Of a stretch of DNA of 64,000 nucleotides, positions 1,029 through 31,736 are shown one piece after another. Source of the stretch: Candidatus Woesebacteria bacterium (GTDB lineage Bacteria; Patescibacteriota; Microgenomatia; UBA8517); assembly GCA_003484955.1 (NCBI GenBank), contig DMZH01000002.1, forward strand, positions 78,825 through 142,824. The letters run 5' to 3'. Below the pieces are notes generated by a model. The model had not been told where the DNA came from. It was given only the letters and a program-made list of their open reading frames with translations, and searched no databases. The position numbers were made by a program, and so were the translations under genes. The stretch's first letter is position 1. Each line of letters begins with the position of its first letter.

Positions 1029-2438
1029 ATGTTCTATATAATTTTTTTATCATTTTTTTTGCTCTCTTTCCAAATAATTTCAAGGTTGGATAAGAATATG
1101 AAATTTATTGAGAGAGCAGCAATGACATATTTGTTAGGAACCGCCGAGGTCTCCTTATTGGGATCGTTTTTTATATATACAAAAGGAAGAATCAACCTTC
1201 TTGAATTTATGATACCGGCAATAATTTCATTTGTTATTTCTTTACTGATTATTTTTAAAAAAGGGAACACCAACCTTAAGCTTCTTAAGAGAGTCAAAAA
1301 GGTTATATATGGCCAGCTCAAAAGAATTAATATTACCTCTTTTGAGGGAATTTGCCTGCTTATAATTGGATTATTACTTGCGACGACAATAATTAACGGA
1401 CTCTATTGGCCGGTGAGCTCCTGGGATTCATTAACTTTATATGATTTTCGCGGAAAGATAATCGCTCAAGGGTTTTCGTTAAGCGATTTATTTAAACAAA
1501 CGTTTAAAGATTGGGATTTTTATTCTTATTATTTTTCGTATCCGCTTTTCACCTCGATACTGCACAGTGTTTCGTATATGACGTCGGGGCCATCTCCTCA
1601 GATTTTCTATAGTCTTTATTATGTAAGTCTCGTAGTAATATTCTACTCAACTTTATTGAGATTTTCAGACAGAAAAACTACTGCATTTTTGACGTTGATG
1701 TTGGCTCTTTCACCAGTCATTTTTAGTCATACCACGATTGCTTATCCAAATTTACCATATGCTACATATTTTGTTACTGGATTTTTTATTTTTTATAGAT
1801 ATACCAAGGAAGGCCGTCCTATAGGTTTATTAATGTTATCTTTATTGATGAATGTCTTTGCGTATGCAGTCAGGCCAACAGAACCCTTTCTTGTAGCCTT
1901 TGCGCTCATATATATTATAGACATGCTTGTCAGCAGAAACATTAAAACGAAAATTATATATCTGTTTCTGTTTTTTATTTTGTTATATATATTAAATAAA
2001 TCATGGAGCCTATATTTTCAAAGAGAAGCTTTTGCAGCCATATCTTATCCCATCAATTTAGATAAAAGATCCTCTTTATTTGATGCCGGTTTAGCATGGG
2101 GCTCATTAAGAACTTTTTCCAATTTGCCGGAGATAATAAAATTTATATACAACAATAGTAAGGGCGCCGTTAGTCCGATTTTGGTTCTGATGTCTGCGAC
2201 TTCGGTATTTTTTTATAGGAATAAAATTAAAGATAACATCTATTCAATAATTTTTGTTGTTGCCTGCTATTTATTGATAGTTGCGGGAACATTGTATATT
2301 AGTTATATATATGATTTTTGGAAAATTATTGGGGAATCTTTGTCCAGAATAGTAATTTTTATTATTCCACTTTTACTTTTTACCATAGGTTGTTTTTGGC
2401 GCTTACCAAGTACTAGTATTTTGAAGTGGGAAGAATGA
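1029..2438 (+). CDS. polytopic membrane protein, putative GT-C fold glycosyltransferase (ArnT/PMT-like)
   Basis: 469 aa with more than 10 hydrophobic helices. An acidic/aromatic first-loop segment (WDSLTLYDFRGKIIAQG) resembles the GT-C loop motif. Sits in the glycosylation cluster. Confidence 0.5.
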   Translation: MFYIIFLSFFLLSFQIISRLDKNMKFIERAAMTYLLGTAEVSLLGSFFIYTKGRINLLEFMIPAIISFVISLLIIFKKGNTNLKLLKRVKKVIYGQLKRINITSFEGICLLIIGLLLATTIINGLYWPVSSWDSLTLYDFRGKIIAQGFSLSDLFKQTFKDWDFYSYYFSYPLFTSILHSVSYMTSGPSPQIFYSLYYVSLVVIFYSTLLRFSDRKTTAFLTLMLALSPVIFSHTTIAYPNLPYATYFVTGFFIFYRYTKEGRPIGLLMLSLLMNVFAYAVRPTEPFLVAFALIYIIDMLVSRNIKTKIIYLFLFFILLYILNKSWSLYFQREAFAAISYPINLDKRSSLFDAGLAWGSLRTFSNLPEIIKFIYNNSKGAVSPILVLMSATSVFFYRNKIKDNIYSIIFVVACYLLIVAGTLYISYIYDFWKIIGESLSRIVIFIIPLLLFTIGCFWRLPSTSILKWEE

Positions 2439-3529
2439 AAATCGGAATCAACACACTGTTTCTTATTCCAAATAAAGTTGGGGGGTCGGAGACATATTCA
2501 AGAGGATTAATTAAAGCTCTTTACGAGTATGACAAGAAAAATGAGTATGTTATATTTTGCAACAAAGAAAATTACAATACATTCGATAATAAGTACAATC
2601 GAATCTTAGTTCCAATAAATGCGACAAATAGATTTGTTAGGATTGTTGCTGAGCAATTAATCTTTCCAATATATCTGTATTTAAATAAAATTGACGTAGT
2701 ATATTCACTCGGATACACCTCTCCGTTTTTTACGACCTGCAAGGCAATTGTAAACATATTTGATCTTAATTGGTATTATCACCCTGAAGATTTTGGTTTT
2801 TTTCAAAAGTTAATCTTAAAATTTTTTGTAACCCACTCGGCAAACTTTGCAGATGCTATCACCACTTCCTCTTTTTCCTCAAAAAAATCAATTAAAGAAA
2901 AGCTTAATATTAAAAAGCCAGTTGAGGTTATGTATATGGGTATGCCATTAATGAATAAGCCAATTTCAAAAAATAGTCTTTTGAAATTGGGAGTGCGAAT
3001 GCCATATATTTTTTCATTAACGGCGGCTTATCCCCATAAAAACGTATTAGGACTATTAAATATTTTTAAATCAATTATTGATAGGGGACACAAGATCAAC
3101 TTAGTTATTGCTGGATTGGGGTGGAGATCGGAAAATGAAATGAAACAATTTATCAAGAAGAACAAACTAAATAGGAATGTTAAAATTTTAAGTTATGTGG
3201 ATAACGGTACTTTATCTGCGTTGTATAAGTATGCAAAATTATTTTTATTCGCTTCTTTTTATGAAGGGTTTGGAATTCCGTTGTTGGAATGTTTTCATTT
3301 TGGCGTTCCCATCATATCGTCCAATGCATTTTCTTTGAAGGAGGTTTTGGGTAACGGAGGTGTTAGTATAAATCCTCATGATCAGAAAATTTTTGTAAGA
3401 GAGATAGAAAAATCCCTAGTGGATAAAGAGTATCTTAATGCCCTAAAAATCAAAAGCACAGAACGCGTAAAAGGTTTTGATTGGGAAAAGAGCGTAAAAA
3501 TTTTTATTAACTTGTTAGGTAAAATATAA
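2435..3529 (+). CDS. glycosyltransferase family 1 (GT4, GT-B fold)
   Basis: C-terminal EGFGIPLLECFHFGVPIISSN matches the E-x7-E GT4 motif. The ATGA overlap with the upstream stop points to M4 (MKIGINTLF) as the likely start. Confidence 0.8.
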   Translation: MKIGINTLFLIPNKVGGSETYSRGLIKALYEYDKKNEYVIFCNKENYNTFDNKYNRILVPINATNRFVRIVAEQLIFPIYLYLNKIDVVYSLGYTSPFFTTCKAIVNIFDLNWYYHPEDFGFFQKLILKFFVTHSANFADAITTSSFSSKKSIKEKLNIKKPVEVMYMGMPLMNKPISKNSLLKLGVRMPYIFSLTAAYPHKNVLGLLNIFKSIIDRGHKINLVIAGLGWRSENEMKQFIKKNKLNRNVKILSYVDNGTLSALYKYAKLFLFASFYEGFGIPLLECFHFGVPIISSNAFSLKEVLGNGGVSINPHDQKIFVREIEKSLVDKEYLNALKIKSTERVKGFDWEKSVKIFINLLGKI

Positions 3530-3530
3530 G

Positions 3531-4442
3531 TTGAAAAACCATTTAAGCAAAAAAAATAAAATTGGAATTATCGTTGTCCATTACGGCAATCCGCAGGATA
3601 CGATCGAGCTATTAGGTTCTTTGTCTAAGATAAATATATTTAATGGCATTTTATATTTAGTCGATAATGATCCCAAAAACAGGCTTAGGAAAATTCCCCA
3701 GTATAACTTCAAAATTAACTATATTAAATCAAAGAAAAACTTGGGCTGGGCTGGCGGTGCAGATTTTGCTGCACGGAAGGCCTACTCACAAGGCTGTGAC
3801 ACCCTATGTTTTCTGACATGTGATACAGTTATTAACGATAAATTTTTCTTAGACAAGATGACGAAACCCCTGGGAGATACAAAGATAGGTGCAACGATAC
3901 CTTTAGTTGTGTTTCATAACAACCCCAATCGGATTTGGAGTGCGGGTGGAAAGTTATATAAATTAATTGCCTATACAAAACATTATGACTATAACCGCTT
4001 TGTAACGATTAAAAATTTGAACAAGTACCCCGACTTCGGTGGTATAGGTCTTACTATGAGATCAGATGTTTATAAAAAGATAGGGGGATGGGATCCAAAT
4101 TATTTTTTGTATTATGAAGATGTCGATATATGTTTCAAAATACTTAAACGTAAACTAAAAATAAAATTAGTTTCCCAGGCCATTGTTGAACACAAAGCAA
4201 CTACCCCATCACGCGGGATTGAGATGAAGCTGTCCCCATTTTCATCATTTCACTATGGGAGAAGCGCTTTTATTTTTATTAAGAAAAATCTCACCGGTTT
4301 TGGTGTTCTAACAGCAATATTTGGTCAGATATTTATACGTGCCCCTTTGTTTATGATTGCAATGATGAGACAAAATAATTTTAAGGCTTTGAAATCCTAC
4401 GTCCATGGTTCACTATCTGGGGTAAAAGAAGTTTTGTTTTAA
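3531..4442 (+). CDS. glycosyltransferase family 2 (GT-A)
   Basis: N-terminal IGIIVVHYGN and a DxD-like YEDVDICF motif. TTG start. C-terminal hydrophobic stretch. Confidence 0.7.
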   Translation: MKNHLSKKNKIGIIVVHYGNPQDTIELLGSLSKINIFNGILYLVDNDPKNRLRKIPQYNFKINYIKSKKNLGWAGGADFAARKAYSQGCDTLCFLTCDTVINDKFFLDKMTKPLGDTKIGATIPLVVFHNNPNRIWSAGGKLYKLIAYTKHYDYNRFVTIKNLNKYPDFGGIGLTMRSDVYKKIGGWDPNYFLYYEDVDICFKILKRKLKIKLVSQAIVEHKATTPSRGIEMKLSPFSSFHYGRSAFIFIKKNLTGFGVLTAIFGQIFIRAPLFMIAMMRQNNFKALKSYVHGSLSGVKEVLF

Positions 4443-5182
4443 ATTCTTTTACTAATAATAAATATCTTTCTATAACACTTGTCAAATGACAATGGTTTGG
4501 AAAGCCATCCGAAGCTGAACATAAAAAAACGAAAAGCAAAGGGTAGTATATCGATATGGATCCTATCCAATAGTTTTTGTAAGGCAAGAAGCGGTAAAAA
4601 GTCAAGGTTTGACAACACCACCAAAAAGATTTCGATTTTAGCGTTGAGATTATTAACCTCCTGTATACTTTCAGGTTTGTAAACTTTTATTTTTTTGACA
4701 ACTGCTTTCGATGAGGGGAGGCCGTTTTGAAGATGCTCCTTAATATATTTGATATGAGGAGAGTTTTTAAATGGAGAGACTAAGTTAAAGAATATTTTAT
4801 CCCGTTTTCGAGCAGCCGAATCACAAGGGAATCCAAGATATAAAGTTTTTTTTGTTACCCTCATCAGTTCAGAAAGGGCTTTGTTTCTAAGTTTTGGAGG
4901 GATGTGTTCAAGCATATCTAAAGAAATTACACTCTCAAAACTTTTGTCTTCAAACGGAAGCTTTAGAACGCTCCCAGTCTTGTAAAACACTGTTTTAAGT
5001 GATTTTCGTCTGAAACTGAAGTCAAATAAAGTAATTTTGGATGTTAGATTCAAAAATGGAGCTACTCCATAATCATCTGATCCCACCTCCAAAATTTTTT
5101 TATATTTGTTTTTCTTGATGTCGTTGACTATTGGTTCATATCTTAAGACAATATCTAGCATACACTGAAGAATATACAACAT
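4439..5182 (-). CDS. class I SAM-dependent methyltransferase
   Basis: ILEVGSDDYG (motif I, glycine-rich) and LDMLEHIPP, typical of the Methyltransf_11/23 fold. Confidence 0.7.
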   Translation of the reverse strand: MLYILQCMLDIVLRYEPIVNDIKKNKYKKILEVGSDDYGVAPFLNLTSKITLFDFSFRRKSLKTVFYKTGSVLKLPFEDKSFESVISLDMLEHIPPKLRNKALSELMRVTKKTLYLGFPCDSAARKRDKIFFNLVSPFKNSPHIKYIKEHLQNGLPSSKAVVKKIKVYKPESIQEVNNLNAKIEIFLVVLSNLDFLPLLALQKLLDRIHIDILPFAFRFFMFSFGWLSKPLSFDKCYRKIFIISKRI

Positions 5183-5284
5183 TTTCAGTCGAGAGACATC
5201 TGGTAATTGAGTGAGGTGGTTAAAATTCTGCGTGCGGGTTGATGATTGACATCTAAAGTGTTATGAGCTAATTTCTACGTATCA

Positions 5285-6559
5285 GTGGTAAAAGAATCTT
5301 TTGTAGATAAGGAACAAAACAAAGTACGTCTTTTGACGGTGTGTCAAGCGTGTAAGGGAAAAAAACTATACAAGTTTATAAATTTTGGGCCGATGCCCAA
5401 GCCGAATATATATCAAACACGTGAGGAAGTTATTCAACATGGTCAGATAAGTTATCAACTGGACGCAAATTTATGTATGAATTGTGGCCTGGTTCAACTA
5501 GGTGAAATAATCCCTTCAAGCGAACTTTTTGCAGACAATTACGCTTATCGTACCCCGGATGCTATGAAGTTTGATTTTAGAAATGGTGCTCACGAAACAA
5601 TAGATATCTCAAAAATACCAGAGGGATCTAAGGTTTTAGAAATTGGAAGCAATGTTGGGCTTTGTTTGAAAGAATATAAAAGATTGGGAATGAAAGTTAT
5701 TGGTGTCGACCCCGCCACAAAATATGCAAAGCAAGCCAACAAAGCAGGAATTAAAACTTTGATTGAACCATTTACACCGGTTTTGGCTAGTGAAATAGTC
5801 AAAAAAATGGGAAAGATGGATATTGTTACCGCAGCAAACGTATTGCAACACATTCCTGACATAAGAGGAACCATAGAGGGAATAGCGACACTACTTGCAC
5901 CAAAAGGTGTCTTTACTTTGGAATTCCCTTATCTGGGAAACATTCTTACAAATACAGATTTTGACACGTTCTATGCAGAGCATTACTATTATCTGTCTCT
6001 AAAACCACTACAAAGAATGTTTGAAGATTTCGGATTGACGATTGTTCATGCTAAACATTTGCCGGACATACACTGTGGTTCAATGAGGATTTTTGTTAAA
6101 CACGCTCCATCAAAAATGAGTCTAGTGGCAAAAGAAATACTAAAGCACGAAGAGGAACAGGGATTTTATGATCCAAATAAATTTGCTGCATTTAGAGTAA
6201 AGGTCAACGACATAATGTATCAAATACACGAACATCTTCACATAGCAAAAATGAGAGGCGAACGCATTGTTGCTCATGGCTCATCTGCCAAGTTTGTAAC
6301 GTTGACAAATTATGGACATATCGGTAGCGACATGATTGAATATGTTGCTGATTCAACCATCGCAAAACATGGAAAAGTCACTCCTGGTATGGGTATTCCT
6401 GTCGTATCTGAGGACAGGCTTATTAAAGACGCTCCAGACCTAATTTTTAATGGTATACGAAATTTTTATCAGCAAAATAAATCGAAATATGGCGAGATAA
6501 AGAGAAAAAATCCCAAGACGAAAATATTGATACCAATTCCAGAGGTAGAATATAAATAG
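5285..6559 (+). CDS. zinc-ribbon SAM-dependent C-methyltransferase (TylCIII/NovU-like sugar C-methyltransferase family)
   Basis: N-terminal CQAC...CMNC zinc-binding pairs, a central methyltransferase core (VLEIGSNVGL) and a C-terminal domain. This architecture is typical of NDP-hexose C-methyltransferases. GTG start is uncertain. Confidence 0.65.
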   Translation: MVKESFVDKEQNKVRLLTVCQACKGKKLYKFINFGPMPKPNIYQTREEVIQHGQISYQLDANLCMNCGLVQLGEIIPSSELFADNYAYRTPDAMKFDFRNGAHETIDISKIPEGSKVLEIGSNVGLCLKEYKRLGMKVIGVDPATKYAKQANKAGIKTLIEPFTPVLASEIVKKMGKMDIVTAANVLQHIPDIRGTIEGIATLLAPKGVFTLEFPYLGNILTNTDFDTFYAEHYYYLSLKPLQRMFEDFGLTIVHAKHLPDIHCGSMRIFVKHAPSKMSLVAKEILKHEEEQGFYDPNKFAAFRVKVNDIMYQIHEHLHIAKMRGERIVAHGSSAKFVTLTNYGHIGSDMIEYVADSTIAKHGKVTPGMGIPVVSEDRLIKDAPDLIFNGIRNFYQQNKSKYGEIKRKNPKTKILIPIPEVEYK

Positions 6560-6561
6560 AT

Positions 6562-7443
6562 CTATAATATCGCTTTTAATTCTTGTGCGAAGTCTTGGAT
6601 GGCTTCTTCCCATGTGGGTGGTTTTAAACCAAGTCTTTTTTCTGCGATTTCCGTAGCCAGGCCTCCAAATTTGGCGTATGGCTGTTTGCCGTTCATATCT
6701 TCAAATTTAGTAAGAGAGCCTTTCTTAATCCCTAATCCCAACCCCAATATCTTGTTTGTGTAAACACCGACTGCATATGGTGTGGTCAACCCTTTACATA
6801 CCCAGTGAAAAACCCCTGTTAATTTTAGTGTTGATAATTTCTCAATTACTGTTTGGAGAGATTTTATGTAGGTCGGTGTAAAATGTTGATCGGTAAATAA
6901 GGGATAACCCAATCTCACTGATTTTATAAGTTTTATTATATAGTCTTTGTCTGGAAAATCTGGATTCCCAAATGGATAGGCTATTCGAAGTATCGCTGCC
7001 TTTGCGCCGGACTTGTTAACTTCTATTTCTCCACGAAGTTTTGTGTAACCATATGGGCTAACTATTTTAAAATCGTCAAGCACTATTTCCGACTCGTCAT
7101 GAGGACCTTTGGATGTATTAAGGTAAGGAAACACTCCGTCGGTCGAGATGTGTATTAAAAACTTGCCCGTCTCTTTACACACCTCTGCAACATTTTTAGT
7201 TCCATCGACATTTAATTTCCAAGATGGACCATTTGGATCACGCGTTGCCGTTTTAACATCAGTGAAAGCGGCAAAATTAATTACAACATCAGCCATTTCT
7301 GCATATTGTCTAATAGAGTCTTTTTGGGTTATATCCAAGTCGGGAAATGGCGGGGAAATTACTTTTTGGAGAGGGGAGGAAAAACCTTGCAAAACTTTAG
7401 ATCCGACAAATCCATGTTTTCCAATAAACAGTATTTTTGACAT
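6562..7443 (-). CDS. NAD(P)-dependent sugar epimerase/reductase, RmlD-like (dTDP-4-dehydrorhamnose reductase family)
   Basis: N-terminal Rossmann motif ILFIGKHGFVGSKV. About 290 aa, the size of RmlD/short SDR epimerases. Adjacent to the C-methyltransferase. Confidence 0.6.
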   Translation of the reverse strand: MSKILFIGKHGFVGSKVLQGFSSPLQKVISPPFPDLDITQKDSIRQYAEMADVVINFAAFTDVKTATRDPNGPSWKLNVDGTKNVAEVCKETGKFLIHISTDGVFPYLNTSKGPHDESEIVLDDFKIVSPYGYTKLRGEIEVNKSGAKAAILRIAYPFGNPDFPDKDYIIKLIKSVRLGYPLFTDQHFTPTYIKSLQTVIEKLSTLKLTGVFHWVCKGLTTPYAVGVYTNKILGLGLGIKKGSLTKFEDMNGKQPYAKFGGLATEIAEKRLGLKPPTWEEAIQDFAQELKAIL

Positions 7444-7494
7444 TTAGCCATTTTATATCGGCACCTTTGATAAATGTAGTGGTAATATATATGT

Positions 7495-9066: not shown

Positions 9067-9144
9067 GGTAAAATATAGTGGTGAAAAGATACATCGAATT
9101 AGGCAAATCCATGCTTTTGTCGGCAACAGCCAAGGACAGATCTT

Positions 9145-10101: not shown

Positions 10102-10103
10102 TA

Positions 10104-13246: not shown

Positions 13247-13299
13247 CTCCCAGCAATTGTACAGCAGAAATTTAGGTTTAAAAAGGTTACAATTGAGGT

Positions 13300-14139: not shown

Positions 14140-14148
14140 TAATAAATT

Positions 14149-18599: not shown

Positions 18600-18603
18600 T
18601 AAA

Positions 18604-21920: not shown

Positions 21921-22839
21921 CACACTCGATTTATCAATAATCATAGTATCGTCCAAAAAGGACTATCTCCTCGACTGCATTAAAACCCTCAAGCCCGCTC
22001 TTGAAGGTGTCGAGAGTGAAATTATTCTGATCGATAACGCATCGTCTGATGAATTGAACAGTTTGGTGAAAGAAAAGTCTCCTTATGTAAAAGTTTTGAG
22101 GCGGGAGGAAAACGGAGGCTTTGGGGAAAACAACAATATGGGAATAAAGATTGCCACCGGAAGGTATATTCTTCTCCTTAACGATGACACACGGATTATT
22201 GATAAAAATATCTTCAGGGAAATGATTGCCTGGATGGATGCCCACCCCAAGGCTGGCGTCTCAAGCTGCGCCCTCCTTAATCCGGACGGAGTTTCCTATC
22301 AAGGATCGGGGGGCTTTTATCCGACTCTTTTCAGGGTGTTGGCCTGGATGACTTTCTTGGACGATATTCCGGGAGTGGACAGACTTATCAAGCCTTATCA
22401 CCCACTTCATTCCGCATCTCCCATTTATAAAGGTGAAAAATTTTTCAAAAGTGAGCATAGACAAGACTGGGTAACCGGAGCATTTTTTTTGATGCGGAGG
22501 CAGGCTTTGAAAGAAGTCGGTATTTTTGATGAGGACTTTTTTCTTTATGTCGAGGAAGTGGAACTCTCGGCAAGATTTGCCAAAAAAGGTTGGGAAATCT
22601 GGTATTTGCCGGAATGGAAAATAGTTCACTTTGGACAGGCAACCTCCGGAAGTGAGAAAGCAATGATTTTTGAACTTAAAAACCTGGTTTTGATGTATAA
22701 AAAACACGAACCGAAGTGGAAAATTCCCATCCTTCGTGCAATCCTTAAATTGGGGGTCTTTTTGAGAATAATTCTTTGGGGCATTGCAGGAAAAAGAGAT
22801 GTTTCTAAAATATATGCAAAAGCTATTAATGCTTTCTGA
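21913..22839 (+). CDS. glycosyltransferase family 2
   Basis: LSIIIVSSKK...LIDNASSDE and LLNDDT motifs. Confidence 0.75.
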   Translation: MSNTLDLSIIIVSSKKDYLLDCIKTLKPALEGVESEIILIDNASSDELNSLVKEKSPYVKVLRREENGGFGENNNMGIKIATGRYILLLNDDTRIIDKNIFREMIAWMDAHPKAGVSSCALLNPDGVSYQGSGGFYPTLFRVLAWMTFLDDIPGVDRLIKPYHPLHSASPIYKGEKFFKSEHRQDWVTGAFFLMRRQALKEVGIFDEDFFLYVEEVELSARFAKKGWEIWYLPEWKIVHFGQATSGSEKAMIFELKNLVLMYKKHEPKWKIPILRAILKLGVFLRIILWGIAGKRDVSKIYAKAINAF

Positions 22840-25658: not shown

Positions 25659-25660
25659 CC

Positions 25661-26872
25661 ATGAAGATATTAATGTTGACCCCCTACCTACCCTTTCCGG
25701 ATTCATCCGGCGGGCAAATCCGCTCATATAATTTAATTAAGGGTTTAAGCAAGAAACATAAAATCACCCTTTTTTCCCTAATTAAAGATGACTCTGAAAG
25801 AAAGTTTATTCCGGAACTTGAAAAATATTGTGTAAAAGTAAAAGTTTTTAAACGCTCGAAATCCCCATGGACTTTAAGGAATATTCTTTTAACCGGTTTC
25901 GGGCCTTACCCCTTCCTGGTTATCAGAAACCTTTCACCGTACGAAACAAAAGCTGTTCAGGAAGAAATTACCCAGGTTGATTACGACTTAATTCACGCAG
26001 AAACATTTTATGTTATGCCTCATATTCCCGAAACTAAAACCCCGATCCTTTTGGTCGAACAGACGATAGAGTATCTGGTTTATAAGCATTATGTGGAAGG
26101 GATAAAAAACCCCATATTACGCTCTCTTTTATCAATTGATGTCGCAAAGCTTAAATACTGGGAGACGAAGTTTTGGAAAAAAGCCGATGGGGTGGTCGCG
26201 GTATCTGAGTCGGACAGGAAAGAGATGCTGAAACTGGTCCCCAATCTTAAGGTCAACCTTGTTCCGAATGGGGTAAATCTGGATTTCTTTAAAGAGAAGG
26301 ATAGCTGGCACTCACCGGAATTCAAAATTCTTTTTATTGCCAATTTCAAATGGTTGCAAAATGTTGAAGCGGCTGAACTTCTTCTAAAAGAAGTCTTTCC
26401 GCGGGTACATGCCAAAAGTCCCAAAGTAAAAGTTTGGGTTGTCGGTCAGCATATACCTGAAGAAATTTTAAAATATAAATCCGAAAATATAATTATCGAT
26501 AATTTAAGCGAAGACGATCAGGAAGGGATAAGAAATGCTTATTACGAATCCTCAGTTTTTGTCTCGCCTCTTAGGGGGCCCGGAGGAACCAGACTTAAGC
26601 ATTTGGCGGCAATGGCTGCAAAGTTGCCTCTGGTTACGACATCGGTGGGTGCTGAAGGTCTTGGTGCGGCCGACGGCAGGGAAGTAATAATCAGGGACAC
26701 TTCCAAAGAGATTGCCGATGCAACCTTACGGATTTTGGGAAATGAAAAGTTGGCAAAAAAGATAGCGGAAAACGCCAGAAAACTGGTTGAGCAAAAGTTC
26801 AGTTGGTATAAAATGGGGGAATATTTGGACAAAATATATGAAAAAACCGCTACTCACGATAGTAATTCTTAA
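25661..26872 (+). CDS. glycosyltransferase family 1 (GT4)
   Basis: N-terminal MKILMLTPYLPFPDSSGGQIR and a C-terminal GT-B domain. Confidence 0.75.
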   Translation: MKILMLTPYLPFPDSSGGQIRSYNLIKGLSKKHKITLFSLIKDDSERKFIPELEKYCVKVKVFKRSKSPWTLRNILLTGFGPYPFLVIRNLSPYETKAVQEEITQVDYDLIHAETFYVMPHIPETKTPILLVEQTIEYLVYKHYVEGIKNPILRSLLSIDVAKLKYWETKFWKKADGVVAVSESDRKEMLKLVPNLKVNLVPNGVNLDFFKEKDSWHSPEFKILFIANFKWLQNVEAAELLLKEVFPRVHAKSPKVKVWVVGQHIPEEILKYKSENIIIDNLSEDDQEGIRNAYYESSVFVSPLRGPGGTRLKHLAAMAAKLPLVTTSVGAEGLGAADGREVIIRDTSKEIADATLRILGNEKLAKKIAENARKLVEQKFSWYKMGEYLDKIYEKTATHDSNS

Positions 26873-27719
26873 TTACAATACAAAAGAGCTTTTGGAAGAC
26901 TGCCTTAATTCCGTTAAGGCACACATTAATGAGGTACCCTTGGAGGTAATAGTGTCTGATAATTCTTCGGCCGACGGGAGCCCCGAAATGGTCCGGAGAA
27001 AATTTCCCTGGGTGAAGTATACCGAAGGACCAAATGAAGGATTTTCTAAAGGCAATAATAGGGCTAGACCCATGGTTACCGGAGATATGGTTCTTTTTTT
27101 AAATCCAGATACGATTGTTCATAAAGATGTTTTTGCAAAAACAGTCATATTTTTAAAGGAACATCCGAATGCTGGCGCGGTAACCTGTAAACTGGTACTT
27201 CCGAACGGTAAAATGGATAAGGACACCAGACGCCGTTTTCCTACTCCTAAAATTGCCTTTCAGCACTTAATTTTAGGTAACGGCAAGGCTTATTGGTACG
27301 AAGACATTTCCGAAAATATAACTCATGAAGTGGAAGCAATTCAGGGTGCTTTCTTTTTGACCCGGAAAAAGGTGTTGGATGAAGTGGGTTGGTTTGACGA
27401 AAAATATTTTTTTGATGGGGAGGACATTGACCTTTGCTACCAAATACACAAAGCCGGCTACAAAATTTTTTATTATCCGGAGGTAACAGTAACCCATCTT
27501 AAAGGCGTTACCAAAGGCAAAGTTTCGGAGTGGAAACATAAAGTCAGTCCCAAACAGCGTAAAAAAATCCGCTTGGCAGGAGTTACTTCCATGGAAAGGT
27601 TTTTCAGAAAGAATTTGTGGAAAAAATATCCGCTGGTTTTCGATTATTTTGTTGTTTTCGGGATAAAAGTATTTAAAGTATTTAGGTATATCAAAGTGGC
27701 CCTATTATCCTCATACTAA
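26838..27719 (+). CDS. glycosyltransferase family 2
   Basis: LLTIVILNYN... and DGEDIDLCYQ. Start is taken at M18 of the ORF (MKKPLL). Confidence 0.7.
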   Translation: MKKPLLTIVILNYNTKELLEDCLNSVKAHINEVPLEVIVSDNSSADGSPEMVRRKFPWVKYTEGPNEGFSKGNNRARPMVTGDMVLFLNPDTIVHKDVFAKTVIFLKEHPNAGAVTCKLVLPNGKMDKDTRRRFPTPKIAFQHLILGNGKAYWYEDISENITHEVEAIQGAFFLTRKKVLDEVGWFDEKYFFDGEDIDLCYQIHKAGYKIFYYPEVTVTHLKGVTKGKVSEWKHKVSPKQRKKIRLAGVTSMERFFRKNLWKKYPLVFDYFVVFGIKVFKVFRYIKVALLSSY

Positions 27720-27726
27720 AAAATTT

Positions 27727-28854
27727 ATGACAAAAATATTATTGGATGCCCGTCTTTATGGGCTTGAAAATGCAGGTCTGGGGAGATATTTAATTAATCT
27801 TGTAGGCGAACTTTCGAAGCTGGATTCAAAGAACGAATATGTTATTCTTCTCAGGAAAAAATATTTTGATTCCTTGAAACTGCCGGATAATTGGAAAAAA
27901 ATATTGGCGGACTATCGACATTACAGTTTAGCGGAGCAAATAATGATCCCCGGGATCATTAAAAAAGAAAAACCCGACATAACCCACTTTCCGCATTTTA
28001 ATGTACCCATATTTTTCAGAGGTAAATTTATTGTGACAATTCACGATATGCTGATGCATAAAAGCGTGGGACTTGCGGCGACAACACTCCCTGCGCCGGT
28101 TTATTTTATTAAAAGGCTGGGGTATAGATTTGTATTTGATAATGCGGTTAAAAAATCAAAAATGATTTTGGTGCCAAGCTACGCAGTCAGGGATGAACTG
28201 ATGGAAGAGTACAAAGTGGATTCCGATAAAATAAAGGTGACTTATGAAGGATTTGATAGAAAAATCTCCGGAGGGTCTGAAGTTGAAATGCCAAAGCCAT
28301 ACTTTGTTTATACGGGAAACGCATATCCCCACAAGAATTTATCAAGGCTAATCGAGGCTATAAGACTATTGAACACAAAAAGTAAACAGAAGGTGTTTTT
28401 GGCAATTGCATCATCGAGGAATATTTTTACCCAAAGAATAGAAAAACAGGCTCAAAAGTGGGGTGTAATTGAATTGGTAAAACTTGTTGGTTTTGTTCCC
28501 GATGAAAAACTCGGGGGTTTGTATAAAAATTCCATAGGATTTGTGTTCCCGTCCCTTTCCGAAGGTTTTGGCCTTCCCGGACTTGAAGCAATGGCCTCCG
28601 GAACTTTACTTTTGGCATCGGATATAAAGGTTTTTAAAGAAATATACGGCGAGAATGCTTTGTATTTCGACCCGAAAGACCCCAACTCAATTGCAGCTGC
28701 CATGGAAACTGCAATGTCTATGGGTAGCTCCGATCGTGCCAGAAAGATTTCAAATTCAATCAAGTTTGTAAATAAATATTCTTGGGTTAAAATGGCGAAT
28801 GAAACCTTGGAAGCATACAAAAAAAGTTGCGATAGTATACGACAGGGTCAATAA
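27727..28854 (+). CDS. glycosyltransferase family 1 (GT4)
   Basis: EGFGLPGLEAMASGTLLLASD motif. Confidence 0.8.
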   Translation: MTKILLDARLYGLENAGLGRYLINLVGELSKLDSKNEYVILLRKKYFDSLKLPDNWKKILADYRHYSLAEQIMIPGIIKKEKPDITHFPHFNVPIFFRGKFIVTIHDMLMHKSVGLAATTLPAPVYFIKRLGYRFVFDNAVKKSKMILVPSYAVRDELMEEYKVDSDKIKVTYEGFDRKISGGSEVEMPKPYFVYTGNAYPHKNLSRLIEAIRLLNTKSKQKVFLAIASSRNIFTQRIEKQAQKWGVIELVKLVGFVPDEKLGGLYKNSIGFVFPSLSEGFGLPGLEAMASGTLLLASDIKVFKEIYGENALYFDPKDPNSIAAAMETAMSMGSSDRARKISNSIKFVNKYSWVKMANETLEAYKKSCDSIRQGQ

Positions 28855-29920
28855 GTGGGGAGGTGCCGAACGTGTACTCCTGGCTCTTCATGAAATTTTT
28901 CCCGATGCACCTCTTTATACCTCCGTATATGATTCCAAAAAGGCTTCTTGGGCAAAAGTTTTTCCGGCAGTTAAAACATCATTTTTGCAAAAGATTCCTC
29001 TTGTCAAGTCGCTTCATGAACTTTTCGGTTGGTTGATGCCTGTTGCCTTTGAGTCATTTAATTTTGATAAATTTGATCTGGTAATTAGTGTTACGTCGGA
29101 GGCCGCTAAGGGTATAAAAACCAAACCCGACACTTTGCATATCTGCTATTGTCTGACGCCAACCAGATATCTCTGGAGTTTAAATGACTATTATTTTAAA
29201 AACCCTCCGGTTTACTTTAAAATATTTCCTTTTTTTCGTGTAATCTCAAAACCTTTTGTCGGATACCTTAAGACATGGGAGGTAAAAGCTGCAAAACGGC
29301 CCGACAAGATGATTGCCATTTCGACCGAAGTAAAAAAGAGAATAAAGAAATATTACAAACGCGATTCAGAAATGATATTTCCTCCGGTTGAATTTAAAAG
29401 TCCCAGGTCAAAAACTCTTGGTAAGCGCGGACATTATTTGGTTGTAAACAGACTGGTTCCTTATAAAAAAGTTGATCTTGCAGTTTCCGCTTTTAATCAA
29501 TTGGGGCTCCCATTAATAGTTGTTGGAACGGGAAGTGAAAGAGTGAAGTTGAAGCGCAGTGCCAAGGAAAATATAAAATTTGTCGGCGAGGTTTCCGAAA
29601 CAAAGCTTGCCAAATACTATCAAAATGCCAAAGCTCTTATTATGCCCCAGGAAGAAGATTTTGGTATAGTTGCCGTAGAGGCCCAGAGTTACGGCGTACC
29701 CGTCATTGCCTATAAAAAAGGAGGATCACTTGACACTGTTATCGATGGAAAAACCGGAATTCTTTTTGATAAACAAAACCCCAAAACGCTAATTAGGGCA
29801 GTCAGGAAATTTGAAAAAATGAAGTTTGATAAAAAGCGGCTTACCGAAAATGCCCGGAAGTTTTCAAAAGCTAGATTTAAAAAAGAGTTTCTTGACTTAA
29901 CTAAAAAGATGTTAAACTAA
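28799..29920 (+). CDS. glycosyltransferase family 1 (GT4)
   Basis: VAIVYDRVNKWGGAERV N-terminus and DFGIVAVEAQSYGVPVIAYK C-terminal motif. Confidence 0.75.
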   Translation: MKPWKHTKKVAIVYDRVNKWGGAERVLLALHEIFPDAPLYTSVYDSKKASWAKVFPAVKTSFLQKIPLVKSLHELFGWLMPVAFESFNFDKFDLVISVTSEAAKGIKTKPDTLHICYCLTPTRYLWSLNDYYFKNPPVYFKIFPFFRVISKPFVGYLKTWEVKAAKRPDKMIAISTEVKKRIKKYYKRDSEMIFPPVEFKSPRSKTLGKRGHYLVVNRLVPYKKVDLAVSAFNQLGLPLIVVGTGSERVKLKRSAKENIKFVGEVSETKLAKYYQNAKALIMPQEEDFGIVAVEAQSYGVPVIAYKKGGSLDTVIDGKTGILFDKQNPKTLIRAVRKFEKMKFDKKRLTENARKFSKARFKKEFLDLTKKMLN

Positions 29921-29926
29921 TAGCTA

Positions 29927-31081
29927 ATGAAAGTTTTCGGATTTTTGTCTAAAATACAAAAAGTGGAAAACGGCAATTACAAAGATCATCTTTATGCATT
30001 GATTTTAGCGGGCGGTGGTGGAACAAGACTTTGGCCCAGGTCCAGACAGAAAACCCCAAAACAATTTTTAAAACTTTTTGATAACCAAACTTTAACTCAA
30101 GTCGCCGTAAAACGTTTTGCTGAAATTCTTCCTTGGGAGAAAATCTTCATTGTCACAGTTTCACCGGAATATAAGAAAGAAGTTCTCAGGGAAAATCCAA
30201 GGCTTCACCCCGAAAATGTTATTGTCGAACCGGTCAGGCGCGAAACAGGGCCGGCTCATGCACTTGGCGCCCTCTTTATTGAATCAAAAGATCCCGACGC
30301 GGTTATTATGACCGAGGCGGCAGACAGGGTGGTCAAGCCGATTTCAAGATATTTGGAAACTTTAGTCCGGGCAGCAAAAGAAGCTTATGAAAAGCATGTG
30401 CTTATTGCTATGGGGGTTGAACCAAGATATCCCCATACGGGTCTGGGACACATCAAAAAAGGAGATAAGGTTAGGGTAAAGGGAAACGTGGATTTTTACA
30501 AACTGGACGGATTTGTTGAGAAGCCCCCCATTGAACTGGCCAAGGAGTATACGGCATCCGGAAAATATCTTTGGAATGCGGGCCAATACGTGTGGAGAGC
30601 GGATGATCTTTTGAATTCTTTTAAAAAACATCAGCCGGGAATCTATAAGAATCTTCAGGATATCAAGCCGCATATAGGCAAAGCCGATGAAGCAAGAGTC
30701 ATGGCATCCGAGTATAAAAAAATGCCTGCGATATCCGTTGATTATGCGATAAGCGAGCGGGAGAAGAACTTTTTGGCTGTCGCCGGAGATTTTTTTTGGA
30801 CGGATATAGGGGATTGGAGAGAAGTTTGGGCGAATTCCAAAAAAGACAATAAAAGCAATGTAATAATTTCAGGGGATGAGCCCGGCGGAGAGGTATTAAC
30901 AATCGACACGACCGATGCTCTGGTACACTCCGACGGTAGAATGATTGCCGTAGTAGGCCTTGATAACATCGTGGTGGTCGATACAAAAGACGCGCTTTTG
31001 GTTTGCTCCAAGAGTCATGCGCAATCCGTTAAAAAAGTTGTGGAACAGCTTAAAGAAGAAAAGAATGTAAATCTTCTTTGA
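29927..31081 (+). CDS. manC: mannose-1-phosphate guanylyltransferase (GDP-mannose pyrophosphorylase)
   Basis: ALILAGGGGTRLWPRSRQKTPKQFL nucleotidyltransferase signature, typical of ManC/CpsB. Confidence 0.75.
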   Translation: MKVFGFLSKIQKVENGNYKDHLYALILAGGGGTRLWPRSRQKTPKQFLKLFDNQTLTQVAVKRFAEILPWEKIFIVTVSPEYKKEVLRENPRLHPENVIVEPVRRETGPAHALGALFIESKDPDAVIMTEAADRVVKPISRYLETLVRAAKEAYEKHVLIAMGVEPRYPHTGLGHIKKGDKVRVKGNVDFYKLDGFVEKPPIELAKEYTASGKYLWNAGQYVWRADDLLNSFKKHQPGIYKNLQDIKPHIGKADEARVMASEYKKMPAISVDYAISEREKNFLAVAGDFFWTDIGDWREVWANSKKDNKSNVIISGDEPGGEVLTIDTTDALVHSDGRMIAVVGLDNIVVVDTKDALLVCSKSHAQSVKKVVEQLKEEKNVNLL

Positions 31082-31085
31082 AAAT

Positions 31086-31736
31086 ATGTTATACGAAATT
31101 GTTAAAAGAGGTATGGATATTGTCTTATCAATATTTCTTTTGGTTCTTTTTTCTCCATTAATGCTTGTTACCGCTCTTGTAATCAAAATGACTTCCTCCG
31201 GACCGATCCTGGTTGAAAAATCAAATATTCATATGAAAAGAATTGGCAAAGGGGGAAGGATTTTCAGACTTTACAAATTCCGTTCGATGGCAGTTAATGC
31301 CGATTATCTTTTAACAAAAGATCCCAGATTCAAAAAACTTTACAGCGAATATAAAAAATCCAGTTTTAAACTCCATGAAGACCCGCGCGTGACCAGGTTT
31401 GGAAAATTTATCAGAAAATATTCCATTGATGAAATGCCCCAATTTTTAAATGTTTTAAAGGGTGAGATGAGTATAGTTGGGCCGCGTCCGTATCATGCCG
31501 ATGAACTTGCCGAGCAGCAAAAAAGATATCCCGGGACGGAGCCGTATGTAAAAGAGACTCAAACGGTAAAACCCGGCATCACCGGCTTTTGGCAGGTAAC
31601 AGGGAGAAGCAATATCAATTTCGACAAGAGAATAAAAATGGATGCGGACTATGCCAGAAAGAAATCACTCCTAATGGACTTGGCCATTATCCTAAGAACC
31701 CCAATCGCAATGATTAGCGGTGTCGGAGCCGTCTGA
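31086..31736 (+). CDS. initiating phosphoglycosyl transferase (bacterial sugar transferase, PglC/WbaP C-terminal family)
   Basis: A single N-terminal transmembrane helix and conserved KFRSM...PGITGFWQV motifs. Confidence 0.8.
   Translation: MLYEIVKRGMDIVLSIFLLVLFSPLMLVTALVIKMTSSGPILVEKSNIHMKRIGKGGRIFRLYKFRSMAVNADYLLTKDPRFKKLYSEYKKSSFKLHEDPRVTRFGKFIRKYSIDEMPQFLNVLKGEMSIVGPRPYHADELAEQQKRYPGTEPYVKETQTVKPGITGFWQVTGRSNINFDKRIKMDADYARKKSLLMDLAIILRTPIAMISGVGAV

Follow-up and report, generated by a model that had tools for sequence, protein, structure and literature searches.

We found that the window, by which we mean the whole stretch of 64,000 nucleotides analysed, carries what is best explained, with slightly better than even confidence, as the main envelope-glycan biosynthesis locus of this genome of Candidatus Woesebacteria (Microgenomates, CPR/Patescibacteria), a groundwater bacterium with a tiny genome of which more than 30 kb are devoted to surface-glycan assembly genes (Table 1). 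The locus has two parts, a densely packed one-strand core operon (16432-33744) and a variable part which covers 1-16400 and runs on leftward from the window start for 10 kb or more. All genes between 13300 and 34314 lie on the same strand and overlap by 1-56 nt or leave gaps of at most 24 nt (ORF coordinates), and GC content is 0.33-0.37 in the left part versus about 0.40-0.42 in the core. Identity to the nearest relative is 95% for GT-C E, 85% for A and 73-77% for B. The ORFs were found where an earlier note on this DNA had placed them, and two of its claims, an envelope-glycan locus with an unusual density of GT-C enzymes and its presence in a tiny-genome lineage, were borne out, the former by Pfam, profile-profile comparison, structure models and loop residues and the latter by the closest genomes, which belong to Candidatus Woesebacteria and have chromosomes near 1 Mb in size. 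The label "island" does not fit, since the right 17 kb are a deeply conserved, collinear Microgenomates operon.

Table 1. Features of the glycan locus and of the nearby ligase gene; loci are those with full flanks around GT-C E orthologs
Feature	Position	Strand	Evidence or occurrence
Membrane protein of 546 aa truncated at the window start; the 3' portion of its gene (319 aa) remains	68..1027	+	
GT-C A, rare divergent glycosyltransferase of predicted GT-C fold	1029..2438	+	PMT_2 20.7 bits; AlphaFold2; hhalign
GT4 glycosyltransferase	2426..3529	+	Glycos_transf_1 99.6 bits
GT2 glycosyltransferase, rhamnosyltransferase-like	3531..4442	+	Pfam GT2; weak NCBIfam rhamnosyltransferase subfamily match
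SAM methyltransferase (sugar modification)	4439..5182	-	Methyltransf_11
NDP-sugar C-methyltransferase-type enzyme	5285..6559	+	Methyltransf_13, Methyltransf_23, Methyltransf_14 (104 bits)
RmlD-like NAD(P)-dependent sugar reductase/epimerase	6562..7443	-	RmlD_sub_bind 125.8 bits
GT-C B, conserved Microgenomates family	7495..9066	+	PMT_2 35.8 bits; hhalign to D family 81.7%
Wzx/MOP-family flippase	10104..11387	+	Polysacc_synt 90.8 bits
AsnB-like glutamine amidotransferase (probable sugar amidation)	11384..13321	-	Asn_synthase 311 bits + GATase_7
GT2 glycosyltransferase	13300..14139	+	Glycos_transf_2 52.5 bits
GT-C C, PIG-M/PimE-like candidate mannosyltransferase, motif LPYRDIAIAHTP	14149..15495	+	PMT_2 35.3 bits
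GT4 glycosyltransferase	15497..16435	+	Glycos_transf_1 94.2 bits
Membrane-anchored GT2 with cytoplasmic catalytic domain, first gene of the conserved core	16432..17268	+	Glycos_transf_2 124.3 bits; C-terminal TM hairpin 221-268
GT-C D, PMT_2-type, loop-1 motif WLDEA	17265..18599	+	PMT_2 43.7 bits; hhalign to E family 98.4%; 28/38 loci
GT4	18604..19662	+	38/38 loci
GT4	19659..20786	+	37/38 loci
Hexapeptide-repeat acyltransferase (sugar O- or N-acetylation)	20779..21375	+	Hexapep 52.9 bits; 37/38 loci
181-aa bitopic membrane protein, two TMs around an outside loop of ~125 aa	21375..21920	+	24/38 loci
GT2	21913..22839	+	31/38 loci
Wzy_C-family polytopic protein (polymerase or ligase/oligosaccharyltransferase)	22784..24199	+	Wzy_C 33.8 bits, cut-off 31.7; 38/38 loci
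GT-C E, universal core GT-C, small C-terminal alpha/beta domain	24189..25658	+	PMT_2 51.0 bits; 38/38 loci
GT4	25661..26872	+	38/38 loci
GT2	26787..27719	+	30/38 loci
GT4	27727..28854	+	36/38 loci
GT4	28799..29920	+	36/38 loci
ManC, mannose-1-phosphate guanylyltransferase (GDP-mannose supply)	29927..31081	+	NTP_transferase 108.7 + ManC_GMP_beta-helix 65.3 bits; 35/38 loci
Small monotopic phosphoglycosyl transferase (PGT), initiating enzyme	31086..31736	+	Bac_transf 203.8 bits; 36/38 loci
DUF4012 protein, N-terminal TM + large outside domain	31756..33744	+	DUF4012 85.5 bits; 36/38 loci
LytR-CpsA-Psr (LCP) glycopolymer-to-peptidoglycan ligase candidate	39085..40293	-	LytR_cpsA_psr 102.1 bits

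Comparative genomics, proposed earlier as a check, revealed a collinear core around the E orthologs (36-97% identity): gene order was nearly invariant among the 75 genomes examined, and all core genes were co-stranded in the 38 loci with full 10-kb flanks. The order is (GT2-GT-C D)-GT4-GT4-acyltransferase-GT2-Wzy_C-GT-C E-GT4-GT2-GT4-GT4-ManC-PGT-DUF4012. As the right half is conserved gene for gene across the Microgenomates lineage, it probably makes a core cell-envelope polymer, uncharacterised so far; in the literature searched a description of this locus or pathway was not found, in line with the earlier suggestion of a possibly undescribed system. The small 181-aa membrane protein occurs mainly in close relatives and had no Pfam or NCBIfam match. 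The enzyme inventory of the earlier note held for Wzx, Wzy_C, PGT, ManC and the five GT2 (confirmed by Pfam), while the GT4 count had to be corrected from six to seven (starts 2426, 15497, 18604, 19659, 25661, 27727 and 28799).

The PGT, which matches EPS_sugtrans, WbaP and WcaJ C-terminal domain in NCBIfam (216-254 bits), is in 36 loci directly followed by the DUF4012 protein, which has the invariant motif FQND.ELR.TGGF, had no sequence match in PDB and belongs to a family enriched in CPR (PMC6744442). The same PGT-DUF4012 adjacency is found in a Bifidobacterium EPS/CPS locus (PMC5412050), and PGT, Wzx, Wzy_C and many glycosyltransferases form a standard EPS/CPS gene set, which would agree with a released exopolysaccharide or capsule made by the ordinary Wzx/Wzy pathway, the GT-C enzymes being unrelated neighbours or acting on other substrates. 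However, we consider this very improbable: EPS/CPS loci are normally hypervariable whereas a class-level lineage shares this core in collinear order, profile searches of the locus and neighbouring genes did not detect a Wzz/tyrosine-kinase module, and the GT-C are translationally coupled to Wzy_C and GT2 in most genomes, even fused to Wzy_C, and are therefore integral to the pathway. Wzy_C and E are a universal pair that overlaps or lies at most 30 nt apart in 68 of 73 loci, and 12 loci, none of which has D, encode a fusion of Wzy_C with a GT-C-like domain (DDFTW...FFYRP...YH..S...H).

The five GT-C candidates proved to be real. Four exceed the gathering score of Pfam PMT_2 (PF13231; 26.1 bits), and A, under that cut-off, is backed by an AlphaFold2 model (pLDDT 75.5, pTM 0.82) and by its family profile, which hhalign matched to the E family (probability 91.6%) so that the loop motifs align; on this modelling and profile comparison A is a predicted GT-C despite its sub-threshold score. 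Each has 6-10 hydrophobic segments, and profile-profile comparison connects the C and D families as well (97.8%). The five were previously called paralogs, which is misleading, as B, C and D are mutually 24-28% identical over about 95 residues only and A gave no match to the other GT-C in pairwise BLAST/phmmer, indicating separate old families. The acidic loop motifs and the topology of the catalytic loops had been named as checks. Each of the five families conserves acidic residues in its first outside loop, and by a crude application of the positive-inside rule the loops with these motifs lie on the outside in A, C, D and E. Invariant residues are D133 and D139 in A, S6, D7, A9 and K10 in B, E30, K157, R274 and H279 in C (with D47 in 36 of 42 sequences and D/E124 in all) and D40, H42, R45, Q46 and D48 in E; D32 and E33 of D are conserved in at least 90%. 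All five are membrane-embedded sugar transferases that probably act from the membrane's outer face, and their unusual density implies outer-face steps with polyprenyl-phosphate-linked donors, which supports the proposal of the earlier note.

The families differ in architecture. In A, additional N-terminal TM helices precede the catalytic loop (WPVSSWDSLTLYDFRG). In B, the loop-1-like motif SD.AKFADIARN stands at the extreme N-terminus without TM1, which was present in just 4 of 29 aligned sequences, and there is an in-frame stop codon 10 nt before the start; with a conserved soluble domain at the C-terminus and at least 515 homologs (the best 120 at 56% identity or more), B is a GT-C of uncertain topology and activity. 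The C family comprises 717 representative clusters and its profile matches GPI mannosyltransferase 1 in PDB (E 4.6e-5). For E there are at least 4076 homologs, the best 120 at 66% identity or more, and with its model (pLDDT 81.4) the best 46 PDB matches in Foldseek are all GT-C, among them STT3 (E 1e-8), ArnT (TM 0.59/0.55) and ALG12 (0.60/0.61).

That the best structural matches of E are protein oligosaccharyltransferases (STT3, also PglB and AglB) brings in the serious rival, which we nevertheless regard as unlikely, that the locus serves protein O-glycosylation of S-layer, pilin or other surface proteins. Wzy_C would then be an O-oligosaccharyltransferase of PglL/WsaB type that transfers the flipped glycan en bloc to Ser/Thr/Tyr, and the PMT_2-type GT-C would O-mannosylate proteins or lengthen the protein-bound glycan. 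The Wzy_C family does include the O-OTases PglL, PilO and WsaB, the GT-C matches are all to PMT_2, D has the DE motif typical of PMTs, and many E orthologs have a precomputed PF02366 (PMT) match in addition. However, the structure matches do not discriminate, as ArnT, ALG12 and ALG9 score equally (TM 0.54-0.61), E of the window has no PF02366 match at E<=0.01, no MIR or PMT_4TMC domain was found, the operon holds no glycoprotein target gene, and an LCP ligase and peptidoglycan genes adjoin the locus.

Regarding donor supply, the first GT2 of the core (16432) overlaps D by 4 nt in the window, and the two overlap or leave a gap of at most 17 nt in 25 of 27 loci. In the Woesebacteria chromosome OY970314 a polytopic PF19528 protein (DUF6056/GT_STM0557_N) replaces D after the ortholog of this GT2, which indicates, as far as gene order and families tell, that its acceptor-specific partner is swappable, the pattern known from Gtr systems. 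The GT2 is a candidate polyprenyl-P-sugar synthase coupled to D and GtrB-like only in its architecture, its best family and PDB matches being generic GT2 that cover the N-terminal half only. The DPM1/GtrB-type GT2 previously reported within the window could not be convincingly located there; a clear DPM1/AglJ-type enzyme of 353 aa with C-terminal TMs lies about 7 kb to the left (best NCBIfam matches AglJ, 91 bits, PpgS and dolichyl-P-hexose transferase). Profile searches of the locus and neighbouring genes gave no family match for a GtrA-type flippase or Wzz/PCP.

This upstream GT2, ManC within the core, the many GT4 genes (a family that includes PimA and PimB) and the match of C to PIG-M, a Dol-P-Man-dependent enzyme, are what a membrane-anchored lipoglycan of LM/LAM type would call for, in which GT4 enzymes mannosylate a glycolipid inside and GT-C extend it outside from polyprenyl-P-mannose. 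Yet PGT, Wzx and Wzy_C follow a polyprenyl-PP-linked repeat-unit logic that the LM/LAM pathway does not use, a Pfam search of the locus gave no match to the Emb/Aft (arabinosyltransferase) families, and genes for PI synthesis or for the acyltransferases of the PIM pathway were not seen. A lipoglycan is accordingly improbable, and the earlier likening to lipomannan, LAM or AG could not be upheld, given the PGT-primed carrier with Wzx and Wzy_C and the missing Emb/Aft family.

We therefore lean towards an undecaprenyl-PP-primed heteroglycan of Wzx/Wzy_C type that is completed outside the membrane by the GT-C, for which gene content and conservation are observed and the chemistry (sugars, linkages, acceptor) is read from the named families. 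At the inner face, the PGT would place a sugar-1-phosphate onto undecaprenyl phosphate. This primer would be lengthened by the cytoplasmic GT4 and GT2 from nucleotide sugars, among them GDP-mannose supplied by ManC, and the hexapeptide enzyme would acetylate. Wzx would carry the lipid-linked oligosaccharide outward, where Wzy_C, together with the translationally coupled E, may polymerise or transfer it. D and E would either use undecaprenyl-monophosphate-sugars as donors for the addition of sugars or transfer an oligosaccharide, the donors coming from membrane-anchored GT2 enzymes, with 16432 as a candidate (with D) beside the AglJ/PpgS-type one left of the window. The variable left part would provide modified sugars through its methyltransferases, RmlD-like reductase and AsnB-like amidotransferase, and A, B and C may decorate the polymer outside in a strain-specific manner. 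The adjacency of B and Wzx is conserved, and the two directly adjoin in OY970314. At the left edge, the truncated ORF 68-1027 had no Pfam or NCBIfam match; its whole gene (8359-9999 in L084/L085) encodes four N-terminal TM segments.

Most likely, the LCP enzyme would take the finished polymer off its lipid-PP carrier and attach it to peptidoglycan. Its gene lies 5.3 kb downstream of the locus and adjoins the peptidoglycan (dcw/mur) cluster. This proximity was seen in the present genome and in the near-identical relatives retrieved, and the LCP gene fell outside the 10-kb flanks used for comparing loci. Judged from proximity only, the polymer is probably wall-linked through this ligase. The earlier view that the acceptor cannot be inferred thus gives way to a candidate, peptidoglycan, and stands in so far as this is deduced rather than observed.

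Compared to known systems, mycobacterial LM is a PI-anchored lipomannan, whereas the genes here indicate a PGT-primed polyprenyl-PP pathway. The same logic as here, with PGT priming on polyprenyl-PP, Wzx and multicomponent GT-C decoration, is found in Gram-positive cell-wall and capsular polysaccharides, and our model was the known mechanism in which a Wzx-type flippase is part of a multicomponent GT-C system (PMC9574508). The rhamnose-rich cell-wall polysaccharides of streptococci and lactococci likewise combine Wzx with multicomponent GT-C, although the enzyme set described here is unrelated and CPR-specific.

Analysis of the window revealed a glycan locus of about 31 tightly packed genes across 68-34314, all on the plus strand except four, with families assigned by Pfam. 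The gene inventory of the earlier note held overall, apart from its count of GT4 glycosyltransferases, of which the Pfam assignment gives seven and not six.

Genes of the glycan locus and the nearby LCP gene: position in the window (start only, where a single number is given), strand, basis of assignment and presence among the 38 related loci with full 10-kb flanks
Feature	Position	Strand	Basis	Loci
GT-C candidate A	1029-2438	+	PMT_2 20.7 bits, under 26.1 cut-off	
GT4	2426	+	Pfam	
GT2	3531	+	Pfam	
Methyltransferase	4439	-	Pfam	
Methyltransferase, NDP-sugar C-methyltransferase type	5285	+	Pfam	
RmlD-like reductase	6562	-	Pfam	
GT-C candidate B	7495-9066	+	PMT_2 35.8 bits	
Wzx/MOP flippase	10104-11387	+	Polysacc_synt 90.8 bits	
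AsnB-like amidotransferase	11384	-	Pfam	
GT2	13300	+	Pfam	
GT-C candidate C	14149-15495	+	PMT_2 35.3 bits	
GT4	15497	+	Pfam	
GT2	16432	+	Pfam	26/38
GT-C candidate D	17265-18599	+	PMT_2 43.7 bits	28/38
GT4	18604	+	Pfam	38/38
GT4	19659	+	Pfam	37/38
Hexapeptide acyltransferase	20779	+	Pfam	37/38
GT2	21913	+	Pfam	31/38
Wzy_C protein	22784	+	33.8 bits vs 31.7 cut-off	38/38
GT-C candidate E	24189-25658	+	PMT_2 51.0 bits	38/38
GT4	25661	+	Pfam	38/38
GT2	26787	+	Pfam	30/38
GT4	27727	+	Pfam	36/38
GT4	28799	+	Pfam	36/38
ManC	29927	+	Pfam	35/38
Small Bac_transf phosphoglycosyl transferase (PGT)	31086	+	203.8 bits	36/38
DUF4012 protein	31756-33744	+	Pfam	36/38
LytR-CpsA-Psr (LCP) protein	39085-40293	-	102 bits	

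The 3' side of the locus is occupied by RecO, an ABC transporter and the LCP protein, followed by a dcw/mur peptidoglycan cluster (MraZ, MraW, PBP, MurA, GlmS, Mur ligases, MurB, Ddl and MraY). A TspO/MBR family protein (40160-40633, +) and a CofD/YvcK-type protein (47388-48392, +) flank or sit within these cell-wall genes, and in a 669-aa protein (51825-53834, +) a Mur ligase with all of its N, M and C domains is fused to NTP_transferase at the C-terminus. Four ORFs had no Pfam match (57342-58391, 36912-37739, 37771-38232 and 41951-42616, all +); one of the Pfam-less ORFs (349 aa) lies inside the mur/dcw cluster, at a position that would suit a gene for cell division or the wall. Neither Rfam nor tRNA scans gave a match in the window, and the taxonomic placement was taken from protein neighbours. 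A promoter/terminator consensus scan of 13000-32999 stayed near shuffle expectation.

For the comparison, 75 genome loci around orthologs of E (36-97% identity) were collected from Woese-, Levy-, Collier-, Davies-, Beckwith-, Gottesman- and Pacebacteria among others, and each ORF was assigned to its best-matching window gene. The genes are always on the same strand and follow a near-invariant order: (GT2_16432-D)-GT4-GT4-acyltransferase-(orf21375)-GT2-Wzy_C-E-GT4-GT2-GT4-GT4-ManC-PGT-DUF4012-RecO, genes being named by start coordinate where needed. This order, together with the presence counts in the table, indicates that 16432-33744 is a vertically inherited core operon. The region had previously been called an island, a term that does not suit a stretch collinear across the compared Microgenomates loci, and horizontal acquisition of the whole region was rejected on the conserved gene order and the 38-locus counts. 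The suggestion of a tiny-genome lineage, on the other hand, agrees with the closest genomes, those of Candidatus Woesebacteria/Microgenomates (Patescibacteria), whose chromosomes measure 0.98-1.08 Mb. The exact E protein (ACD_13C00144G0048) was found on at least 22 contigs from several groundwater metagenomes. Many MAG records that carry the Microgenomates operon (L007, L011, L012, L021, L037, L061, L074, L078 and others) are labelled as Gammaproteobacteria, Pseudomonadales, Bathyarchaeia, Limnocylindrales or TM6, and these taxonomy labels appear unreliable.

Within the core operon, the Wzy_C protein and the GT-C enzymes show physical coupling. In 68 of 73 loci the distance between Wzy_C and E is at most 30 nt or the two genes overlap, and the same holds for GT2_16432 and D in 25 of 27, the overlap of the latter pair being 4 nt in the window. 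In 12 loci (L043 5098-8295, L045, L046, L047, L056, L058, L059, L069, L070, L075, L077 and L078), all lacking gene D, the Wzy_C protein reaches about 1000-1080 aa, with a Wzy_C-like N-terminal half and a polytopic C-terminal half. The C-terminal domain has no Pfam match and carries a conserved 'F..DDFTW..W...FFYRP..K...YH..S...H', which we take to be the loop-1 signature of TMTC/PMT_2-type GT-Cs. Two further loci (L066 8595-11365 and L067 8601-11368) contain two tandem E-family paralogs after Wzy_C. In the Woesebacteria chromosome OY970314.1 (L082, 16059-18361) a PF19528 protein takes the place of D behind the GT2_16432 ortholog; the local Pfam lists this family as 'DUF6056' and the precomputed labels as 'GT_STM0557_N', STM0557 being a Salmonella GtrC.

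A-E are GT-C enzymes, with evidence that differs in grade among them. They are polytopic, with 6-10 hydrophobic segments each by crude hydropathy (about 8-13 TM helices are expected for GT-C), and in the predicted models A and E form all-helical bundles that resemble solved GT-C enzymes, ArnT being among the best structural neighbours of both. The model of E (pLDDT 81.4, pTM 0.85) gave 46 consecutive top Foldseek matches that were all GT-C, including STT3 (E 1e-8), PglB, AglB, ArnT (TM 0.59/0.55) and ALG12 (0.60/0.61), and further DPY19, ALG9, Pmt4, AftA/D and Emb. Alignment of family profiles with hhalign connected E to D (98.4% over 358 columns, loop-1 motifs aligned), C to D (97.8%), A to E (91.6%, 'WPVSSWD' of A opposite 'NPVADWH' of E), and, from a single sequence, B to D (81.7%). 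Loss of the acidic loop motif, which the earlier note had named as evidence against a GT-C identity, was not seen: in each family, the loop that comes behind the relevant TM helix has retained acidic residues, namely D133 and D139 in A (invariant), D7 in B (invariant), E30 (invariant), D47 (36/42) and D/E124 (42/42) in C, D32 and E33 in D (conserved at 90% or more) and D40 and D48 in E (invariant). A crude positive-inside count placed these loops outside in A, C, D and E. From what is known of such families, A-E would use polyprenyl-phosphate-linked sugar donors.

The five genes are distant from each other. All-vs-all BLAST/phmmer found 24-28% identity among B, C and D over only about 95 residues, a weak C-E match and none for A, which rules out recent paralogs. 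The A family is also rare, with 14 homologs among 5.8 billion clusters and a Pfam match in none of them. Single-sequence and profile searches of PDB sequences gave no match for A, D, E, Wzy_C or DUF4012, and in NCBIfam the GT-Cs, Wzy_C, DUF4012 and ORFs 68-1027 and 21375-21920 all fell below every curated cut-off. The sole PDB sequence match among the families tried was that of the C-family profile to GPI mannosyltransferase 1 (PIG-M; E 4.6e-5), limited to profile positions 42-198, and C had no Pfam GT87 or PIG-M match at E<=0.01. In B, the loop-1-like motif lies at residues 5-18 with no TM1 ahead and an in-frame stop 10 nt upstream of the start. A truncated pseudogene was considered and rejected, as the orthologs are 56-84% identical and have the same length and start; S6, D7, A9 and K10 are invariant at the extreme N-terminus of the family, and an N-terminal TM1 extension occurs in only 4 of 29 aligned orthologs, most of which share the same start.

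The left part of the locus is variable. Its first 12 kb have a GC content of 0.33-0.37 compared to about 0.40-0.42 in the core, and identity to the nearest relative is 95% for E, 85% for A and 73-77% for B. According to the contigs bearing the exact A protein (L084/L085, 1-10000), the glycan locus runs at least 10 kb further left of the window. This extension contains a second A-family gene (hhalign 100%), an epimerase, a methyltransferase-like protein, a 546-aa gene whose 3' end is the window ORF 68-1027, and two GT2 genes. One of these GT2 proteins, located about 7 kb left of the window, has 353 aa with C-terminal TMs and AglJ as its best NCBIfam match (91 bits), along with PpgS and dolichyl-phosphate hexose transferase; judged by sequence, it is of the polyprenyl-phosphate-sugar synthase type. 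In L085, two polytopic proteins with lengths of 628 and 519 aa resemble GT-Cs on visual inspection ('SWDSLAYH', and 'FVDDG' after a TM); they had no Pfam match and no hhalign match to the D family and were therefore left out of the GT-C count. The super-locus of OY970314.1 has a different sugar-modifying set (DegT aminotransferase, methyltransferases) and again many GT-C-type genes, among them four PMT_2-type proteins: B, one on the minus strand, one A-like and one C-like below the cut-off. Its content suggests that GT-C density is a conserved property of the locus, while individual decorating GT-Cs are exchangeable. In the same chromosome Wzx comes directly after B; in the window a protein with RhuM and Fic/DOC domains (9145-10101, +) lies between the two, and the adjacency in OY970314.1 suggests that a toxin or mobile-type gene was inserted here.

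Starting from the observed gene content, coupling, conservation and GT-C fold, we infer a working order of synthesis, which follows the logic of the multicomponent GT-C systems for making and decorating rhamnose-rich wall polysaccharides. The initiating PGT, the Wzx flippase and a Wzy-type protein, that is, the trio of a Wzx/Wzy pathway, are all present, the Wzy_C protein being either a polymerase or a ligase. On family knowledge, PGT would prime on undecaprenyl phosphate, after which GT4 and GT2 enzymes would extend the glycan in the cytoplasm with nucleotide sugars including GDP-mannose, and acetylation would be added. The lipid-linked product, the presumed substrate of Wzx, would be flipped and then polymerised or transferred by Wzy_C together with E. 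Outside, the GT-Cs would glycosylate from undecaprenyl-phosphate-sugars made by membrane-anchored GT2 enzymes. A putative candidate for donor synthesis within the window would be GT2_16432, a GT-C-coupled gene with the architecture of a membrane-anchored GT2. No family matched it specifically; its similarity to ArnC is 30 bits in the N-terminal part only, against a cut-off of 529. Treating it and the AglJ-like GT2 as one subfamily was rejected, as their similarity is limited to the first 107 residues. The Wzz/PCP family of chain-length regulators is not represented in the window, where neither Wzz nor GtrA matched any ORF of at least 100 aa, and DUF4012 and orf21375 are possible candidates for that role.

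In the last step, LCP would move the polymer to peptidoglycan. The acceptor could instead be a protein, as Wzy_C-family O-oligosaccharyltransferases exist and the best Foldseek matches of E are STT3, PglB and AglB; however, ArnT, ALG12 and ALG9 score equally well with E. For transfer to peptidoglycan, the proximity of the LCP gene in the window may point to a link to the operon, and a metagenome scan with the LCP protein gave only three near-identical loci. Our tentative proposal, which may well turn out otherwise, is that the conserved 17-kb operon makes an undescribed, lineage-defining secondary cell-wall polymer of Microgenomates, which in CPR would correspond to the teichoic acids, arabinogalactan or rhamnose polysaccharides known elsewhere. 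Its route would be a hybrid, with an obligate pair of Wzy_C and a dedicated GT-C (sometimes fused) and with strain-variable extra GT-Cs diversifying the surface in contact with hosts and phages.

To our knowledge, next to nothing is known of the envelope chemistry of CPR/Patescibacteria, which account for much of bacterial diversity and spend their lives attached to other cells. Inside the window the locus occupies about 34 kb, rising to about 44 kb when the upstream extension is included, which in related chromosomes of about 1 Mb corresponds to roughly 3-5% of the coding capacity. Half of it keeps the same gene order throughout a class-level lineage, and this speaks for a strongly constrained, core structural polymer. 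The analysis names candidate genes for a CPR wall glycopolymer and for its surface-variable decorations, which are likely to be determinants of phage and host recognition. It also brings into view experimentally uncharacterised families (five GT-C families, DUF4012 and a bitopic 181-aa protein). The pairing and fusion of Wzy_C and GT-C could inform how polymerase- or ligase-type proteins and GT-Cs cooperate, with the prospect of defining the unknown wall polymer of CPR.

The individual parts of the locus are familiar, and the surprise is its scale and deep conservation in a minimal genome. In literature of incomplete coverage, we found no GT-C enzymes or operon of this kind in Patescibacteria/Microgenomates, the sole link being DUF4012. 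This family is enriched in CPR and Gram-positives according to Méheust et al. 2019 (PMC6744442), who point to the Bifidobacterium EPS locus with adjacent PGT and DUF4012 (PMC5412050). The window DUF4012 protein has an N-terminal TM, a stretch of about 200 aa with only insignificant PDB matches (coiled coils and chemoreceptor stalks), and then a globular part that is conserved and in which 'FQND.ELR.TGGF' and two cysteines, both invariant, are found. The EPS/CPS locus of Bifidobacterium longum (PMC5412050) shares DUF4012 beside the priming phosphoglycosyl transferase, but its order is priming GT-DUF4012-Wzz, whereas the window has neither Wzz nor a tyrosine kinase; a GT-C set is not reported there. 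The lineage-wide collinear core, the invariant (sometimes fused) Wzy_C-GT-C pair and the PGT-DUF4012 pair look new.

Of the systems with many GT-Cs, mycobacterial lipomannan/LAM and arabinogalactan share the use of many GT-Cs within a single envelope pathway, a supply of GDP-mannose, a candidate of PIG-M/PimE-like type (C) and, for arabinogalactan, LCP-mediated wall attachment. However, the window gave no Pfam or NCBIfam matches to Emb/Aft, GT53/GT85/GT89, PimE/MptA/MptB, Ppm1 or PI-anchor families, contains no decaprenyl-phospho-arabinose genes and uses a PGT and Wzx/Wzy_C chassis; the likeness stays at the level of the GT-C fold. With the Emb/Aft families missing and PGT priming combined with Wzx and Wzy_C, this is not LM/LAM/AG machinery, and the lipomannan-like glycan considered in the earlier note is unlikely.

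Bacterial and eukaryotic enzymes of protein glycosylation (PMT/GT39, the O-OTases PglL/WsaB, and PglB/STT3) share PMT_2 membership, the DE motif in D, a Wzy_C protein and the STT3/PglB top matches of E. In contrast to them, no MIR domain is present, the WWDYG-type catalytic C-terminal domain of OST was not identified, and the operon encodes no target glycoprotein. At E<=0.01 the window proteins matched only PMT_2, with no PF02366, PMT_4TMC or MIR; the locus is therefore no demonstrable GT39 PMT system, although PF02366 is among the precomputed matches for about 40% of the E orthologs, which makes a distant GT39 relationship possible. The enterobacterial and phage GtrA-GtrB-GtrC systems for O-antigen glucosylation and the ArnC-ArnT systems for modifying lipid A share the logic in which a GT2 loads undecaprenyl phosphate and a GT-C transfers outside. 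An acceptor-specific GT-C partner is found in D after GT2_16432 and, as PF19528, in the relative where this Gtr-type family replaces D. The flippase corresponds to the four-component variant with Wzx, which adjoins B in relatives. By contrast, GtrA is missing, GT2_16432 is not a clear member of the GtrB/ArnC family, and the likeness to ArnT is structural, with no NCBIfam ArnT match, no PDB sequence match and no ArnC equivalog in the window. The locus does not count as an ArnT system; the organism is presumably monoderm and without lipid A.

The closest parallel seems to lie in Gram-positive bacteria, and the locus would work like their multicomponent GT-C wall-polysaccharide pathways with CPR-specific families. 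GT-C systems with a Wzx-type instead of a GtrA flippase have been described as four-component, and in the lactococcal pathway the flipped lipid-linked oligosaccharide is the substrate of a GT-C and of a protein of polymerase type (PMC9574508). The window shares with Wps/Csd of Lactococcus lactis and GacI-J-K-L of Streptococcus pyogenes (PMC9574508; PMC8035078; PMC11127046) a membrane-anchored GT2 beside a polytopic GT-C, a Wzx-family flippase in place of GtrA, a polymerase-type polytopic protein beside a GT-C, many cytoplasmic GTs, a candidate LCP ligase for wall attachment, and sequence-divergent GT-C partners swapped between strains. Unlike these, it has no rhamnan backbone module (no rgp and no ABC exporter in the operon). 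Compared to the Gac pathway, a GacJ-type activator was not identified in the window, and priming is by a Bac_transf PGT (lipid-PP) and not by a GacI/J-type lipid-P-GlcNAc synthase. The GT-C families A-E are specific to CPR, the locus holds from five to at least eight GT-C-type genes, and its core has been kept across a class-level lineage while the cores of the lactococcal and streptococcal systems are variable.
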